This document shows positions 52,915-62,008 of a stretch of 64,000 nt of DNA, piece by piece. How positions within the stretch are numbered: position 1 is the stretch's first letter; each line of letters starts with the position of its first letter. The position numbers and the translations under genes were made by a program. The notes beneath the pieces were generated by a model. That model had not been told where the DNA came from. It searched no databases and saw nothing but the letters and a program-made list of their open reading frames with translations. The DNA comes from Cenococcum geophilum. Taxonomy: Eukaryota. The stretch spans positions 10,044,001-10,108,000 of the forward strand of contig CP158635.1 in assembly GCA_050273025.1 (NCBI GenBank), given 5' to 3'.

Positions 52915-54915
52915 GGCTGGAACCAAGGCTTAGATTGGAAACTTTATTGGTGTATGAGGAAAGGATAAAAGCGGTAAAAATGGTACTAAAGGCGTCTGTT
53001 GCGTCTAGTGATGGATCCAAGAAGTGACAAAATGGTGGCAGTATGAATTAAGGATCCAGATAAAAAATTATACTATAATAGAGGGGAAGTTACTTAGGTA
53101 TGGTGCAATGGTCCGGTATATATGCGGCTATGGCGGATTTATTTAGGAGGAGTCTGGCCACGAAGACGGTCGGGCTGTGGGACTCATGCTGCGCCGTCAT
53201 GTCAGGCCACATGGTGCCACCATAAGCTCTGTCAGAATATATTAATGTCGAGATGTGCCGCATGCGGCCGGCGTTAGTGTTGGGTGTACAATATCGCCAA
53301 CGGGTGGGTGCAGGGGTCATCCTGTCAGACAAAATACTTTGCCAGTAACAGAGGTGTAGTTTGGGTGGTGGCGCGCCTCATGTTAGGCGCTTCGGTTCTT
53401 AAGAATTGTTATAGAGTTCATCGTGTTTCTGTTGCCGCGAGTCTAATTAATCTCCTACTTTTAGAGCGGCTGTAAGGTGATGGGTGGTCGTACGGTGGCC
53501 CAGCTCGCCGTAGTAAGCTGCGAAACGTTTCAAGGTCGATCCTGGACGGCGTAGTCTAGGCGAAAGCTAACAACTCCTTCAACTCCTACAACAACCTCAT
53601 CTCCTCGAAAACGCTAACGGAAACAAGAAAATCTCAAGGGCCCTTGCTCCTGGAATCCTGATCTTCGCACACTCGCAGCGCGATATTGGAATGAAGCCTG
53701 CAGATCTCATGTGACTGCATTTGCTGCACGAAATACCTCCACAAATATTATGCATCCCGCCGTTTCGGCAGAACAATACTTTATCCTAGAGTTCCCACGG
53801 AATGCGATGATAGAATTCTCTGTAATTACATTGAGATATGTGCTTCAATTTCTCGCGGTCACAGCAAACCACTATACTCCAATAAGCATATAATCCTCGG
53901 AGGAAGAGTTTTTTGTTATTCACGATAATGTTTCCAAGTAAATGGAAGAAATTGTCGAACAGGACGATCAAGAATGAGAACTCTGGTTTATTGAGAGAGG
54001 ATCTGGAGCATTATTAAATACACGAATTGAATGGGTCAAACGCACCCCTGAACTAAGCTTGATATAGTAGTGATCGACGACAGGCCGAGAGAAATCCAAA
54101 ATCACTCTTACTTTTTCACACGAAAAGGCGATGCGGCCCGACACAGTGCTATACGACTGCACAAAGTCTTGATTTAAATATCTACTTATGTATTTAACGG
54201 GTCACAGAACGCGGATTGAGGACCGATTAAGCGACTACGCCGTAAGGGAGTATGAAAAAAAAACCTCGACATGTCGGCCCGGGCTTGTACCATCAAACAC
54301 ATTCACTTGTGTTAGGCAGAGGTCGCTTACTAGTCTTTGCTTATTTCGCCTCCCTCTCCAACGAGGCTCTGAGGCTGATGCGGCGTTAAGCGCTTGCCTC
54401 AATACATGTGGTTGGAAACCTCTTCTTATTGGGATTAGGCACTTGGCTCCGTGTTGAAGGATGCACGCTGTGCCTCTTGGTTAAAAAAAAAAAAAAAGAA
54501 GCAGGGCTAAATGGTATTCATTGGGGCCACGTTTTGATATCTGTTGGAGCAGCAAGGTTAACAAGATAATTCCTTTTTGGCACGGTAAGATCGCTTTACA
54601 GAAACCGTATGACTTTGAATCCGTATCGACCCAGCGGTAGGATTGGACGACGACTCCTGCGAGCGCTGAGGTAGGCGAAAATTCAAATAGATTCTATTTC
54701 TCCCAACGGCACCAACGGCGCCATTTGTGCGGCATTTGTCGAACGGAATTTAAGGCTATATATTGTCCTAATTCGCGCTACCTATAGCCTTTTATCCTCA
54801 ACGTCAGTGGTCCGTGCGGGAATACCAAAATTAACCTCATATTTCTGAGCACGCCCTTAAATCCTATTGATCCTATTGGCTAAATCCTTATCGATAACAC
54901 GAGGACGAATTTTAC

Positions 54916-55083
54916 TGTAAGGCATATTGCCCAGGTGTACGGTAGGGAGCAGGCAAGCCGAGCAGGAGAATCGATGGAAGAGGACGATATGGTAAAAAGT
55001 AGGTATGGCAATACCCTAATACGGAGACGCACCGATGAGGAGGGAAGGGCTGCAAGCCCGAGTAAGGGAAAAGATCCCTTACA
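54916..55083. mobile_element. Solo LTR (168 bp) with 5-bp target-site duplication
   Basis: TTTAC|TGTAAGG ... CCTTACA|TTTAC. Confidence 0.85.
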
Positions 55084-55088
55084 TTTAC

Positions 55089-55540
55089 CGTGCTAAGGGA
55101 TACTTAGTATAGGTCTATTATAACTACAATATAGTTGTAAATTAAGTGTTATAATAGCCGCGTTTTATCTTAAAGTATATTATTACTAGCCTTATAGCTC
55201 TTTATTTTAGTAGTTGATCTATAACCTTTTAATAAAAAAAGAAGTAGCTTCTCCTTATAAGTATTCCTGTAAAGGAATTGGGCTTATATTGATATCGCTA
55301 TCGTACAAGAAGGATTTGTTAAGGAAAGAAGAGGTTGGAGTTCCCCTAAGTCGTACAAGTGTTCCTCTCCTGCCAAGTAGTTCTTCTAGGGTACAACCAT
55401 TACAAATACTACTAGTATCGCAGGAGCGGCGCCGGTCTGCTAGGGGGGGTTTCCATTTTTCTATATACATGTAGACGCAGATGGGGGAGGAGAGGTAGAG
55501 AAAGTATACTTACTAAAACCGGTTACTTAGCGAGCGGATA
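55089..55540. repeat. Small RIP-like AT-rich repeat relic
   Basis: Local TpA-rich tract resembling the left compartment; no identifiable domain. Confidence 0.55.
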
Positions 55541-55681
55541 AGTAACCTTTCCGCATGGGGTAAATGCATGGGCGCATGGCTGGCCCAATAGCCAATAGTA
55601 CGCGCGCATTAGCGACCTTTACCACGCTGCAACCGCAACTGATCAGTCCGCCGTCCTTTAACCTGTGATTCACATCCAACC

Positions 55682-56281
55682 ATGCTCGCCAGATTCTTCG
55701 CCCCCGCCCACATCGGGCGGGTTGCGGGTGCGCGAGCTTTTCACACCGCGACCGCCGACTTCATCAATTATGGTCCAGACGGAGCACTCGTCACCAGTAA
55801 AGTGTCTATCAGAATCGGCGACCCCGGGGAAGCGTATGTGATGATTCCACCTAAAGTTGGCCGTGCTCTCCAGGCTGGCAGCTTGCTCACCAATGGCTCG
55901 GCTCTCACCAACGGATCAGCAAAGTCTGCGCTGAGCTACTTCCACGACACCCAACACTTTACCCATGGTAAGTTGGTCATCGCCCGCCTGCTCTCCGGCT
56001 GTTGCTAATCTCTCAACTTAAGAATCATCGCCCGGCTACCCTCGCCTAGTAATCCCTCAACAGCTCCCCCACCAATCCGCTGCAAACATGAGTCCAGCGA
56101 CGCTATTTCTCTATGGCAAACTATATACAATCGCTTTAAATGGAACTCTAGATGGTACCTCGCCCTACCCTTACCGTAGTCACTTAGCAGCTCCTAACAT
56201 AAACCAGCGGAATTTGCGAAACTTGCGAGCACTGTAGGGCCAGACCTCGGACCCGCGCTAGAAAAGTTGAAGGACATGTAA
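55682..56281 (+). CDS. Hypothetical 163-aa protein, 3 exons, possible mitochondrial presequence
   Basis: Exons 55682-55967, 56023-56154 and 56208-56281 join in frame. Introns GTAAGT..GCTAAT..AAG and GTACCT..CCTAAC..CAG. N-terminus MLARFFAPAHIGRVAGARAFHTA. Confidence 0.75.
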
Positions 56282-56558
56282 TTATTGAGGGGCGACCGGA
56301 GGATTTTTCAGAGAGCTGGGTATAGATAATGGATTATGCAGTCGCTTTTATTATGTTTCATCCTCGCTAAAGCAAACAAAAGAGCGTCCTACTCTGAGGG
56401 AGTCCTGCTTTATGGAAGCCCCTCCGCACACCAAAGAGTCCTGGCCCTGACTCCTAAAGCTATCCAGAGAGTATCCTGATCAACCAAAAAGAAAAACCAG
56501 GCACAGCACAGCGCTAATACTCAGTGGCCGCATTTCTATACTCCATAATGTCAGCGCT

Positions 56559-56996
56559 CTACTCTTCAATCTCGCTAGCCACTGACTGATAGAACTGCCC
56601 CAATTGCTCGGCTGTCCATGCACTAGTACACACCGCAACATGGGCGTCTGCTATGCTTTGGTTGACACGATCATTGGTATCATTCGCCTGAAGCGGTACT
56701 TTTTGGAGCTTGTACCCGTTAATTTTCAGGAACATATCTGCCGCCACAAGCGCTGTGCGTTTATTTCCATCCTGGTAAGCGTGGTTCTTCATAATCTTTT
56801 CGGAGAGGTTTGCGGCAAGCTGGAACACGTTTTGTTGGTTGGTGTAATATTCGATGTTCATAGGCGACTGTACTGCTGAATCCAACATGATCGGCTGAGT
56901 GGGCTGGGCATTCGGGTTGACCCAGGCGGCGTGGAGGCGCTGGATTTGAGCAACTGTCAGGAAGCGCAACGTCTTCGTCGCCGCGGCGGAGGCCAT
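56559..56996 (-). CDS. Fic/Doc (death-on-curing) family protein, 145 aa, intronless
   Basis: Doc-type motif KNHAYQDGNKRTALVAADMFLKING; N-terminal RFLTVAQIQRLH and LDSAVQSP helices typical of Doc. Confidence 0.9.
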   Translation of the reverse strand: MASAAATKTLRFLTVAQIQRLHAAWVNPNAQPTQPIMLDSAVQSPMNIEYYTNQQNVFQLAANLSEKIMKNHAYQDGNKRTALVAADMFLKINGYKLQKVPLQANDTNDRVNQSIADAHVAVCTSAWTAEQLGQFYQSVASEIEE

Positions 56997-57539
56997 TACC
57001 GGCTGAATTATTATTACTAAATACGTCGTTGACTCAGGTACCCGTGCTGTCGACTGAGGGCTGTAGGACCAAAAGCAAAGTTGACAGGCGCGGTGTCGGT
57101 CTAGACCTTAATAGCTGCACATGAAGTGCTAGGTATTTCGGAAATAAGGTGCAATCTGCACGATTATTAGTCTACTGGCACTAAATAACTTAGATCTTCG
57201 AGTACTTACTGTAGACCATGCAGTGACCCCAGCACATGTTGTATAAGAATATCGAGGCATGTCCGCAGCCAAAATACCACACGCTACCGTGGACTGCTCT
57301 GACGAATAAACTACATAACTAATCCTAGGCCCTTTCCAATAAAAAGGCATTGCTAGTTGATGCCTAGAGGTATCCTTCCATCTTCGTCTAGAGAATCTGC
57401 TAAGACTTCTTGGCACCATGTAATAGCAAGGATGGCTCTAGGCATCAATCAAAAAGAGTGCGCTTGCCTTTAACCATGGAGAGTAAAAATTAGTATGGCG
57501 CGGACGATTTAGTTAGTTTACCATACAAATGGGAGCGCT

Positions 57540-58030: not shown

Positions 58031-58985
58031 TGAAATGGAAATGATATAAGGCCGAAACAAAACAGATATTAGTTTAGGCAGTGGACATAACTAGCCGGTA
58101 AGAAAAGACAAGGCAAGACTAGTGTAGAGAGCGCGTCGAGTCATGACGAATCGGTGTTGTGGGGGGTTGCAGGATTTGAGGATTTAGAAATAGGAGAAAA
58201 GGAAGGTGTCAGTGGAAATGAAATGATAGAGGAACCCGCTATTTAGCGCGAGGCGCACATTCAAGCTTTTCTGAATAACGCCATCACATAGTGAATAAGG
58301 AACTCTCTCTCGCGGTGTAACAGTAATTGGAAGGCGGAAAAGGGTGATTGCGAAGAAGTTAACGTTGCGGACACGGTTGGCGATACTCCCAGGCAAAGAA
58401 GAAGTGTATATAGGTCATAAATAAGTGGTTGCACAACTTCGGAGAATACTGAAGTCATCGTGATGCACGTTACGAGTCGGGGCCGTGAAAACGGGAGAGA
58501 TACCTTGGCAGATTTGAGGCCTCGACAACTCCCATTTCAAAAAACTCAGGGCAGTTATCTCATAATTCTCTACATCGCCTCTTTGCGTCTCGGTGTAAGA
58601 TCCTATTAATCCTAGAGATCCAACGGCATAAGTTCATACCTTTCTGAGTGTTAAGCACGACCATTCAACATATTTCTAACTATCTTAGGTATAATTCTAT
58701 ATAGAAAGGGTATAAATCCACAATCACTCAAAGTGATTCGCCGCCACGCATGCCATCTAGTATGTGCCTAAAGTCATACAAGGTACGATTCAGGCAAGCT
58801 TGAACTCCGCGGGTTTAAATATCTTAACACCGTCTCTATCTCCACGGAGAGCCAACAGAAAATCAAACGGCCTGCAGCATACTTTTATCTGATGGGGATT
58901 CTCATCAGACTTGTCGCTTCACATACTTCACCGAACCGATTACCTTCGAGTTCGCCATATTTTCATCAACCCAAAACCAGCAACT

Positions 58986-59924
58986 ATGTCTGCCACGTTC
59001 ACCACGCCGAAGAAGCAGCTTACCTGGCTAATTACAGGCTGCTCCTCCGGCTTTGGCCTCTCACTTACTCGCATCGCGCAGGCAGGCGGACATACCGTGG
59101 TCGCGACTTCACGCAACCCTTCACGCACGCCCGAGCTCGTTGCGGAGGTCGAGGGCAAGGGGGGGAAATGGCTCCAGCTAGACGTGGACAGCCCCAACAG
59201 CGCCCAGGTTATCGAGGACCTTGAGAAGTCAGGCCAGGAGATCGACGTCCTGGTGAACAATGCGGGCTTTTCTATCCACGCCCCCATAGAAACCTTCGCC
59301 GAGGACGAAATCCGCGCTCAAATGGAGTCGATGTACTTCGGCCCTCTGCGTCTGATCCAAGCGGTGCTGCCTCACATGCGCAAGCGGCGATTCGGCGTCA
59401 TCGTGAACATGAGCAGTGGCGCAGCCCTCGAAGCCAGAGATAGCATGGGTGCTTATGCCGGAGCCAAGGCTGGACTCGATGGTACGTGTATCCTCCACCA
59501 CTCATTTGTATGTTAGTTCTAGCTCGAATTCATTCACAAGTCTGACGAAGGCCCTGGCAAAAGAGGTGGCCCCGTTCAACACCCGAGCCCTGACCGTCGT
59601 CTTGGGCACCTTTAACACCAACATGGCAACGCCGCCGTGTTCGGCAGGAATCCCCTCCCGGACGATTACAAGGGATCCGTTTCCGAGCAGATGATCCAGT
59701 TCATTTCCAGCGGCAAGATCGTCCCCAACGGCGACAAGGACAAGGCCATGAAGGCGGTCTACGAGGTCGTGGTGGGCGAGGGTGCCGGAGCCGGATGCGA
59801 AGCCGAGCGATTCCTCCCCCTGGGCACCGACATGACGGTCCGAGTGAAGATGGTGCAGGAATGCCTCGCGCACGGCCTGGAGGTCTTTGTGGACGTCGCC
59901 AACAACGTCAACATCGACAAATGA
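58986..59924 (+). pseudogene. Short-chain dehydrogenase/reductase, apparently disrupted
   Basis: WLITGCSSGFG, DVLVNNAG, YAGAK motifs. The in-frame acceptor reads CAA instead of CAG (~59539), and a 1-nt deletion near 59625 shifts FNTNM away from (G)NAAVFGRNPLPDDY. Confidence 0.75.
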
Positions 59925-60688: not shown

Positions 60689-62008
60689 CTATCCCCTATC
60701 TTCAATCCTCAATTTTGGCTCGTTCCCATGACCTTCAACCACGGGCGGACACCTCATCAGAACATCCGGCACCTCAAACTTAAGCTCAAACCTCTTCCCA
60801 CACCACTCCACCTCCACCTTCGCCTTGAGCCTGTACGCGAGCGTAATCGCGAAACTCTGAAAACTCGGCGTCGCATACCCGGGGATCCGCCCAGTGAACG
60901 ATGCCTCAACACCATCCCCAGAACCCCCGCCCTTTCCCTCTGCAAAAGATACATTTTGGTGTTCCGGCATCGCATTCAGTACCACGCTCCGCTCACTAAT
61001 CTCCATTTCCTGCGTGCGATACCCCGACCGCCTCGGTTCGGCAGTATGATACTCACTCGGCTCACCACGCGAAGTATTCTGAGCAGCCCAGTCCCGCGGC
61101 GCGCGAAACAGCGCGAAATCCAGCAACTCCAGCTTCTTCACACGGAACGCGACCGGCGGCAGCACGCTCACGTTCGCCGAGCGCTCCATGATCCTGACCA
61201 CGCCGCGCACGCTGAAGACGTCGCCGCAGGAGACGGCGGCCGGCATGCTGCAGCCGAGCTCGAACGTGACCTTTGGCGTCTCGCTCGAGAACCGGTCGGC
61301 CAGTTTCTGCCGGAAGCCAGGCTGCGCGACGCCGGCGAGCATGCTGCTTGCGAGGTCGAAGGTCTTGGCGCTGCTTCGTGCGGCGGGCGGCGGCATGGCT
61401 TGTGGGATGCGGTCGTTGGGGAGGAAATTCAGGGGCGCTGTGACGGACCATGGGATTGCGTCCGGGTGGCCTGCTGGGGGTTTTATGGTGGCGGTTACGC
61501 CGTAGGTGATGGAGCATTTGTGCAGTGGGACGCCCCCGGGGTCGTGTATGAAGGTGGGTGGTAGGGGGTGCGGGACGGATGTCCATATTTCGTTCCACGG
61601 ATCCTGGTAGCAGGCTGCGCGGTTGAAATTCGTTCGTTCTGGGAATTGGACCTGGAAAGGCCACTGGTATTTCGTGTTGGGTAAGAGCGGATATGGGGAC
61701 GGGAAAAGGTTGAGAGTATGGGTAAAGAGTGGGGCGTGGTCTCTGTAGTGGCGATAGGTAGTTGAGCTCGTCTCGTTATTACCAGCCCCGCTGCTGTGGC
61801 TTTCGCTTCTGCAGATATACGTCTCGCTTTGTCCCCATAAGGTGAGTTCGACGGCGCTTGGTGTCGTGTTGACCGTACTTTCGAAGATTACTCGACCGGA
61901 GATGAGTTGTCCTGGCCTGAATACCGTCCCTGGTTCGTGATCAAGAGCGATACTAGAGGAAGGGACCGGCACTTCCGGCTTAGGATCGGATTTGGAAAAG
62001 AAATGCAT
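60689..62008 (-). CDS. Arrestin-like (Arrestin_N / LDB19-type) protein, 439 aa
   Basis: VFRPGQLISGRVIF, LTLWGQSET, YQWPFQVQFPE, HPLPPTF, SITYGVTATI, PSFQSFAITLAYRLK. Confidence 0.75.
   Translation of the reverse strand: MHFFSKSDPKPEVPVPSSSIALDHEPGTVFRPGQLISGRVIFESTVNTTPSAVELTLWGQSETYICRSESHSSGAGNNETSSTTYRHYRDHAPLFTHTLNLFPSPYPLLPNTKYQWPFQVQFPERTNFNRAACYQDPWNEIWTSVPHPLPPTFIHDPGGVPLHKCSITYGVTATIKPPAGHPDAIPWSVTAPLNFLPNDRIPQAMPPPAARSSAKTFDLASSMLAGVAQPGFRQKLADRFSSETPKVTFELGCSMPAAVSCGDVFSVRGVVRIMERSANVSVLPPVAFRVKKLELLDFALFRAPRDWAAQNTSRGEPSEYHTAEPRRSGYRTQEMEISERSVVLNAMPEHQNVSFAEGKGGGSGDGVEASFTGRIPGYATPSFQSFAITLAYRLKAKVEVEWCGKRFELKFEVPDVLMRCPPVVEGHGNEPKLRIEDRG

Follow-up and report, generated by a model that had tools for sequence, protein, structure and literature searches.

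A Doc-Type Kinase Gene and Its Convergent Partner in Cenococcum geophilum: A Candidate Mitochondrial Toxin–Antidote Pair Linked Across Filamentous Ascomycetes

The window dealt with here is a stretch of 64,000 nucleotides of Cenococcum geophilum (assembly GCA_050273025.1, contig CP158635.1, forward-strand positions 10,044,001 to 10,108,000), in which two small genes stand tail to tail with 277 bp between the stop of one and the other, an arrangement that was re-derived from the open reading frame (ORF) and the splice model and agrees with the original prediction, made from the bare letters of the window. One gene encodes a protein of the Doc family of Fic enzymes; the other, called the partner below, encodes 163 residues, and each occurs once in the 178-Mb genome. 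The two genes are linked across Pezizomycotina, and each is transcribed and subject to purifying selection. It is proposed that they may form a toxin–antidote cassette that works in mitochondria.

The Doc ORF encodes 145 residues with the motif HAYQDGNKRTA, and by all of the sequence and structure tests that were run its product is a member of the Doc family. It matched the Pfam Fic domain with an E-value of 6e-13 and scored 54.7 bits against TIGR01550, the Doc model, above the curated cut-off of 38.65. Residues H72, N78, K79 and R80 were invariant across 55 aligned sequences; the third motif position is Tyr in the window's protein, and many relatives have retained Phe there. The part of PMC4177925 drawn on here gives the Doc motif as HxFx(D/N)(A/G)NKR, with Lys at position 8, and the kinase logic that goes with it. 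An AlphaFold (AF2) model with a predicted local distance difference test (pLDDT) value of 89 contains six helices, and the five best Foldseek matches to it were all P1 Doc chains, with template modelling (TM) scores of 0.73/0.86. The ratio of nonsynonymous to synonymous substitution rates (dN/dS) against locus L005 was 0.18, indicating purifying selection. The original prediction of an intact, intronless gene stood as to the ORF, its length, its motif and a coding sequence without introns, but the transcript carries an intron in the 5' untranslated region (UTR), and the word intact had to be given up, as the tail typical of the family is missing.

The window's Doc ends 15 codons earlier than most relatives, at an in-frame TAG (56559-56561) where many of them have Trp, and the next 14 codons still match the family tail. 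The tail is kept in 86 of 134 homologues, which end 14 residues past this mostly-Trp position, and 20 of the 134 stop immediately short of it, 15 of them closely related to the window and 5 not. The TAG and the preserved frame of the tail are common to the window and to loci L003 and L004, in each of which the tail differs by 1 nucleotide in 42, whereas the neighbouring gap differs by about 10%, a comparison of little power. Natural alleles of 145 and 160 residues fall within a single 90% cluster (11 and 4 of the 15 listed), and the AF2 model of the tail-less protein has its full catalytic core. Simple loss of the tail is likeliest, possibly by a change of the repeat-induced point mutation (RIP) type, and read-through of the TAG is conceivable. 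As for adenosine-to-inosine (A-to-I) editing, which the excerpts of PMC10041177 and PMC13123824 locate in Sordariomycetes and Pyronema, the base at the TAG was unchanged in the alignment rows shown (20 rows were left out, and the reads were antisense or the rows were contigs).

The partner is read from a splice model of three exons, both introns of which were present in all four RNA runs that were aligned. Its 163-residue homologue P0121 is 94% identical across residues 1–95, and a profile search (E ≤ 0.001) gathered a family of 323 clusters at 50% identity, of which 150 were inspected and 62 members aligned; the exon structure given in the original prediction was thus upheld, while the gene can no longer be called an orphan. 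Purifying selection is seen here as well, with a dN/dS against L005 of 0.15 in the exon-1 core and 0.32 in exon 2, and four genomes carry additional paralogues. Among the 62 aligned members, the only Pfam, NCBIfam and PHROG matches were Doc domains, which stemmed from merged gene models, and chance matches to one member each, and no antitoxin family matched; a match to Aim19 in 1 of the 62 (E 5e-4) was taken as chance. The AF2 model (pLDDT 90) has a beta-rich core and a helix at residues 138–161. A Foldseek search with it returned nothing at E ≤ 0.001, and a VIA fold search over 48,161 chains matched no solved fold, its best Z of 4.1 being a score at which a remote link is still possible. Matches in the ESM Atlas were all under 0.9, the best PDB sequence match had an E-value of 0.8, and PADLOC gave no match for three partner sequences. 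A reading of the core by eye as two AbrB/MraZ-type repeats was rejected (hhalign E 0.22 and 0.41; repeat versus repeat 0.47). One gene model from Trizodia (P0174, 298 residues) joins a partner homologue to an unrelated, membrane-protein-like N-terminal half and is probably a merged model.

The linkage of the two genes was followed through 22 metagenome loci that carry a fungal Doc, and in 18 of them the partner (matched at E ≤ 1e-11) lies immediately downstream of Doc, 17 times convergent and once in tandem. These 18 loci make up 8 sequence groups, and eight of the loci come from one species group. The unlinked loci are L021, with 163 bp downstream and a weak trace of the last exon; L017, with 373 bp downstream; L022, with 451 bp downstream and a broken Doc; and L024, which lacks a partner despite ample flank in AT-rich DNA (guanine-plus-cytosine content, GC, 37%) and likewise has a broken Doc. 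In Periconia macrospinosa, a Cadophora sp., Aspergillus stella-maris and Microsporum canis, which together span three classes, the accessions or locus tags of Doc and partner follow directly on one another, and in Glonium, Aaosphaeria and several further records the two genes sit on equally long contigs. Weighing against linkage, 8 of 10 partners looked up had no matching Doc in a partial Doc list. The original prediction would have been refuted by homologues that are unlinked in other genomes; with linkage in 18 of the 22 loci and in named genomes of three classes, it was not refuted on this count.

The surroundings of the pair change from lineage to lineage (short-chain dehydrogenase, ferritin-like, ribophorin II, TOR-type kinase and COG2 genes), and between lineages almost nothing outside the pair can be aligned. 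The distance matrices of the two genes are correlated (Mantel r 0.84, 19 linked pairs), which shows joint inheritance, not binding. In the tandem case (L018:2430-3426) a tail-less Doc stops 10 bp before the ATG of a partner that lacks intron 1. This locus is closely similar to Trichophyton, where public gene models fuse Doc and partner; the fusions (P0159 and P0297) have differing junctions and are probably artefacts, because in L018 the Doc stop precedes a partner with its own ATG and leader. A further locus (L015:3850-4323, minus strand) has a second, divergent Doc with an intact motif, head to head with the first.

Ten runs recorded as RNA contain the locus, and expression was seen in root and fungal metatranscriptomes. 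Strand was resolved in X21, a single stranded raw library from a strain about 95% alike, of which 12% was read and 323 reads were aligned. The read class that carries the plus-strand introns reached a depth of 32–47 over 56310-56753, spanning the gap and entering Doc for about 185 nt, and its read starts piled up at 56742/56743. The partner is transcribed, and in this library its 3' UTR is antisense to Doc. Doc itself is transcribed in some samples, as the joint of its 5'-UTR intron occurs in contigs of runs X1 and X8 (2 of 4 runs). Three runs with the same label contained next to none of the sequence words of the locus, which is no proof of absence.

Proteins bound for the mitochondrial matrix typically begin with an Arg-rich, acid-free, amphipathic leader that has Arg at −2 or −3 of the cut. 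Leaders with a Met start and a length of 15–60 residues were scored in 46 of the 62 aligned partners, the filter having dropped 16. They contain 16% Arg and 0.9% Asp plus Glu, compared with 5% and 11% in the core; 38 of the 46 are acid-free, all 46 have at least two Arg, and a cleavage-type motif R-x-[FYL]-x-x occurs in 22 of the 46 against 10% in shuffles. By composition, then, the partner leaders look like mitochondrial presequences. The Doc proteins show a related bias, the first ~31 residues being acid-free in 71 of 95 fungal and in none of 68 bacterial sequences. Asp plus Glu make up 1.2% of the fungal Doc N-terminus versus 14.0% of the bacterial one, and 9.8% versus 10.0% of the next segment. 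Because the fungal Docs are kin, the 71 cases are one evolutionary event that has been kept, not 71, and many columns in this region vary freely.

The presumed target is present in the host. The mitochondrial-type EF-Tu of the genome has R-E-G-G-R followed by Thr, the two being split by an intron, and the end of the exon aligned to R381 of 393-residue EF-Tu chains, so that the Thr corresponds to T382, the Doc site. In the portion of PMC5851678 drawn on here, T382 of EF-Tu is the site modified by Doc, and a eukaryotic Fic protein modifies eEF1A at the equivalent residue. The original prediction had noted the acid-free N-termini, which were seen again in both proteins, and had linked them to mitochondria. 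Targeting is now supported by partner leaders throughout the family and by the composition of the Doc N-terminus, and the target Thr is present. A second target named at the time, bacterial competitors, is disfavoured, since both N-termini look mitochondrial.

The last exon of the partner offers a possible route to binding. According to excerpts of PMC4803016 and PMC13034048, P1 Phd binds Doc through a C-terminal helix, and in an Enterococcus faecalis Doc antitoxin the binding helix comprises residues 52–79. Candidate antitoxin ORFs were taken from upstream of Doc in 74 of 80 bacterial loci, and six implausible ORFs were removed before a profile was built; among 10 upstream ORFs scanned with TIGR02609, 2 were above its cut-off and 3 more matched weakly. 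Alignment with these antitoxins was confined to the last 25–27 residues of the partner (hhalign E 0.0012–0.0022, probability 13–20%), with an observed score of 20.3 against 17.6 for the best of 20 column shuffles. Under a position-specific scoring matrix the fungal partner C-termini had a median score of 5; shuffles had −20, the ends of unrelated ORFs −30 and bacterial antitoxins that had been left out 31. With a hidden Markov model of the antitoxin helix, 8 of 28 partners reached at least 5 bits, compared with 23 among 4042 control windows and 11 among 1400 shuffled sequences, and six C-terminal residues are identical between one Lactococcus antitoxin and many fungal partners. These comparisons show a modest likeness between the last-exon helix and the Doc-binding helix of bacterial antitoxins, which suggests homology but does not prove it.

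Complex prediction without alignments for the window's Doc and P0121 gave a score of 0.51 (runs of 0.51, 0.54 and 0.31), and the best of three controls gave 0.01. The runs shared at least 59% of contacts, with a partner pLDDT of at least 40. The mark used was passed by 51 of the 78 solved complexes, 2 of 108 mismatches and 7 of 44 blind neighbours; with a score of 0.60 or less it was passed by only 5 of these 78, and the 4 mismatches out of 180 that passed all had scores in that range. The models thus lend weak support to Doc–partner binding.

A word search for Doc returned 314 relatives among 328 candidates, and the best 120 of the 314 were inspected. The 37 that carry an organism name are all from Pezizomycotina (Dothideo-, Eurotio-, Leotio- and Lecanoromycetes); no Sordariomycete was among these 37, a count that does not amount to a test of absence. 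A quick tree was built from 42 fungal Docs and from 40 of the 76 bacterial ones extracted, and in it the fungal proteins formed one clade on a long branch, with a support of 93 (not starred) in the Shimodaira–Hasegawa-like approximate likelihood ratio test (SH-aLRT). Certain groups unite members of different classes, such as Onygenales with Leotiomycetes (support 86–89), and hint at paralogy or fungus-to-fungus transfer. No bacterial donor was resolved in this tree, where long branches meet. The tree is consistent with a single, ancient acquisition of Doc from bacteria, or at the least with one that did not reach this genome recently; the horizontal acquisition suggested at the outset thus fits as to bacterial origin, but it would be old, and its donor is not identifiable.

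Other Fic matches in the genome are a canonical gene with the motif HPFLDGNGR (L109, G000:C2:3207835-3211158), one match with no clear motif and one degenerate copy (L111 and L112), and no partner homologue lies within 1.5 kb of any of the three. The excerpt of PMC2686095 places Fido domains in "a few fungi", and that of PMC4454073 discusses transfer of Fic genes in Basidiomycota, a different clade from the fungal Docs treated here. In the literature covered, which leaves out most subscription papers, no account of a fungal Doc–partner pair was found.

The features of the locus are collected in Table 1. The solo long terminal repeat (LTR) and the RIP relic beside the pair were confirmed by the ends of the LTR, its TTTAC duplication and a TpA/ApT ratio of 1.80 (GC 33%) over 55084-55420. 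Convincing mobile-element ends bracketing the pair were looked for and not found, and 46 candidates that were examined included no viral contigs. A conserved upstream ORF (uORF) acting as a brake on Doc was considered and rejected, as among 13 loci examined only the window and L004 have it. Farther out, positions 1-25000 are AT-rich with a strong RIP signature (GC 34%, TpA/ApT 1.72) and are probably decayed repeats, and short dispersed repeats of two further families (53952-54090 and 58565-58720) lie on either side of the gene-poor patch. The Doc side of the window holds a short-chain dehydrogenase gene (58986-59924, plus strand) and an arrestin-domain gene (60689-62008, minus strand); the region of the former can be aligned in L003 and L004, and that of the latter in L004.

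Table 1. Features of the Doc–partner locus, in positions of the 64,000-nucleotide window.
Feature	Position	Strand	Basis or remarks
Partner gene (candidate antidote), 163 aa	55682..56281	+	Exons 55682-55967, 56023-56154, 56208-56281; splice model, introns in RNA
Predicted cleavable mitochondrial presequence, partner residues 1-20	55682..55741	+	R-A-F at end, then H-T; composition across family
Partner last exon	56208..56281	+	C-terminal helix, residues ~140-163, terminal L-x-x-L-K-D-M
Partner 3' UTR through gap, antisense to 3' part of Doc	56282..56743	+	Stranded reads X21; likely 3' end ~56743
Doc-type Fic kinase gene, 145 aa, single copy	56559..56996	-	Pfam Fic, TIGR01550, Foldseek
Catalytic motif HAYQDGNKR	56757..56783	-	Lys at position 8; Tyr for Phe at position 3
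14-codon family tail and second stop, past in-frame TAG	56514..56558	-	Match to family tail
Intron in Doc 5' UTR	57156..57209	-	CT..AC joint in X1, X8 contigs; GTAAGT..CTAAT..CAG on minus strand
4-codon uORF in Doc 5' UTR	57108..57122	-	Window and L004 only
Solo LTR, 168 bp, multicopy	54916..55083	.	TG..CA ends; TTTAC target-site duplication
RIP-mutated AT-rich relic (55084-55420) and dispersed repeat	55084..55617	.	Repeat end ~65 bp before partner ATG

The reading preferred here, with a probability put at about 0.6, is that of a mitochondria-targeted Doc kinase restrained by its partner, a two-gene toxin–antidote cassette acting within the organelle. Both proteins would enter the matrix, the partner by way of a cleaved leader of 20 residues and Doc by way of its acid-free first ~35 residues. 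Doc would then phosphorylate the Thr of mitochondrial EF-Tu that is equivalent to T382 of E. coli, and mitochondrial translation would stop. The C-terminal helix of the partner, borne on its globular core, would fill the groove of Doc that Phd-type helices use, and the stretch of the partner 3' UTR that overlaps Doc may add damping at the RNA level. Loss of the cassette, or of the antidote supply, would leave a cell, spore or nucleus without respiration, and the pair may be kept as a selfish, addictive element or as a host switch for cell death or dormancy. A bolder history can be offered tentatively, in which Doc entered the filamentous ascomycetes once, possibly with the remnant of an antitoxin helix as the last exon on a new fold, both proteins were retargeted to mitochondria, where an EF-Tu of bacterial type is still in use, and the pair has since moved between sites, killing spores or nuclei that lack it by shutting off mitochondrial translation.

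Several observations weigh against the cassette. Doc has no separable cleavable leader, and its acid-free N-terminus could simply be inherited from one ancestor. For the helix, the hhalign probability is just 13–20%, the closest homologue P0121 scores 3.0 bits, the bacterial leave-one-out median of 31 stands against a fungal median of 5, and an amphipathic C-terminal helix could arise by convergence. No link between the partner core and AbrB/MazE antitoxins was detected with hhalign (E 0.22–0.41), and no partner homologue was found in the 80 bacterial Doc loci. The tail kept by 86 of 134 homologues is missing from the window's allele, so this copy of Doc may be weakened, and no Doc sense reads were seen in X21, where the opposite read class was zero over Doc in this one stranded library. 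In Melanomma and Byssothecium the listed Doc is on other contigs than the two listed partner paralogues, a separation that may be due to the paralogues. Lastly, because it is syntenic with its close relatives L003 and L004, the locus is not a recent insertion.

Other explanations share much of this evidence. The partner might be an activator, chaperone or substrate adaptor of Doc, the two forming a domesticated mitochondrial enzyme module that, for example, tunes translation in stress or dormancy. Long conservation under purifying selection, expression in metatranscriptomes and a well-folded core would all be expected of such a module, and linkage and co-targeting suit it equally well; it is nonetheless judged unlikely, since an antidote accounts better for the shifting genomic contexts, the extra partner paralogues in four genomes, the broken Docs and repeated tail loss, the presence in X21 of partner RNA with no Doc sense RNA, and the antitoxin-like helix. 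Somewhat less likely again is a Doc toxin with a partner that serves as immunity factor but a different target, whether eEF1A in the cytosol, some other GTPase, or the EF-Tu of bacteria that live within the hyphae or compete with the fungus. Bacterial EF-Tu is the known Doc substrate, eEF1A is modified by a eukaryotic Fic protein at the T382 equivalent (in the excerpt of PMC5851678), and a Doc with no clear cleavable leader would fit; its N-terminus, however, is short, basic and acid-free, with a composition that is not secretory, and the presequence of the partner implies that protection is needed inside mitochondria.

The least probable of the alternatives is that the two proteins do not interact, and that linkage is held by RNA-level control, of the kind exerted by the antisense RNA of type I antitoxins, or by shared co-transfer. 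Plus-strand RNA does cover ~185 nt of the Doc coding sequence in the library that lacks Doc sense reads, and 17 of the 18 linked loci are convergent, but the tandem pair of L018 persists without a convergent overlap, and purifying selection on the partner, its conserved C-terminal motif and the weak support for a complex all count against this view.

Among known systems the cassette comes closest to the P1 Phd–Doc and TIGR01550/TIGR02609 (AbrB-type) modules, such as that of E. faecalis (PDB 9VZC), with which it shares the Doc fold, the Lys-type motif, small size and an adjoining small partner gene that ends in an amphipathic helix with a terminal L-x-x-L. On present evidence it is a candidate module that would work like Phd–Doc. 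It was not classed as a Phd–Doc operon because the operon layout is absent, 17 of 18 pairs being convergent and the tandem case having the partner downstream of Doc. Unlike the bacterial modules, the fungal genes are nuclear and eukaryotic; the partner has introns, a presequence and a core of ~120 residues that is unrelated to AbrB by profile; and the fungal Doc begins with an acid-free N-terminus and in most cases ends in a tail of 15 residues. Eukaryotic Fic AMPylases (HYPE/FICD, Caenorhabditis elegans FIC-1) and other fungal Fic proteins, the host's own HPFLDGNGR gene among them, belong to the same superfamily, but they differ in carrying Gly at position 8 of the motif and in transferring AMP.

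The killer meiotic drivers Spok of Podospora and wtf of fission yeast place toxin and antidote at one locus and occur in multiple copies at shifting positions. No family match to either was found, and the fungal pair differs in consisting of two separate genes, one of bacterial toxin–antitoxin origin and both apparently mitochondrial. The Arabidopsis pollen killer PK3 with APOK3, as described in the excerpt of PMC11761171, likewise links nuclear killer and antidote genes and involves mitochondria; it is built from other, plant families and from three genes, with an antidote identical to half of a killer.

Bacterial type II toxin–antitoxin pairs are not known to survive as functional pairs in the nuclear genomes of eukaryotes. 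In the case described here, a Doc protein and a dedicated partner stay together in at least three fungal classes, and both bear signs of mitochondrial retargeting, in what is probably a kind of toxin–antidote module not yet described in fungi. If the proposal is true, it would add to fungal biology a new toxin–antidote or cell-death system for which a biochemical target is named, give a function to an unannotated family of 323 clusters without a known fold, and reveal a direct switch on mitochondrial translation.
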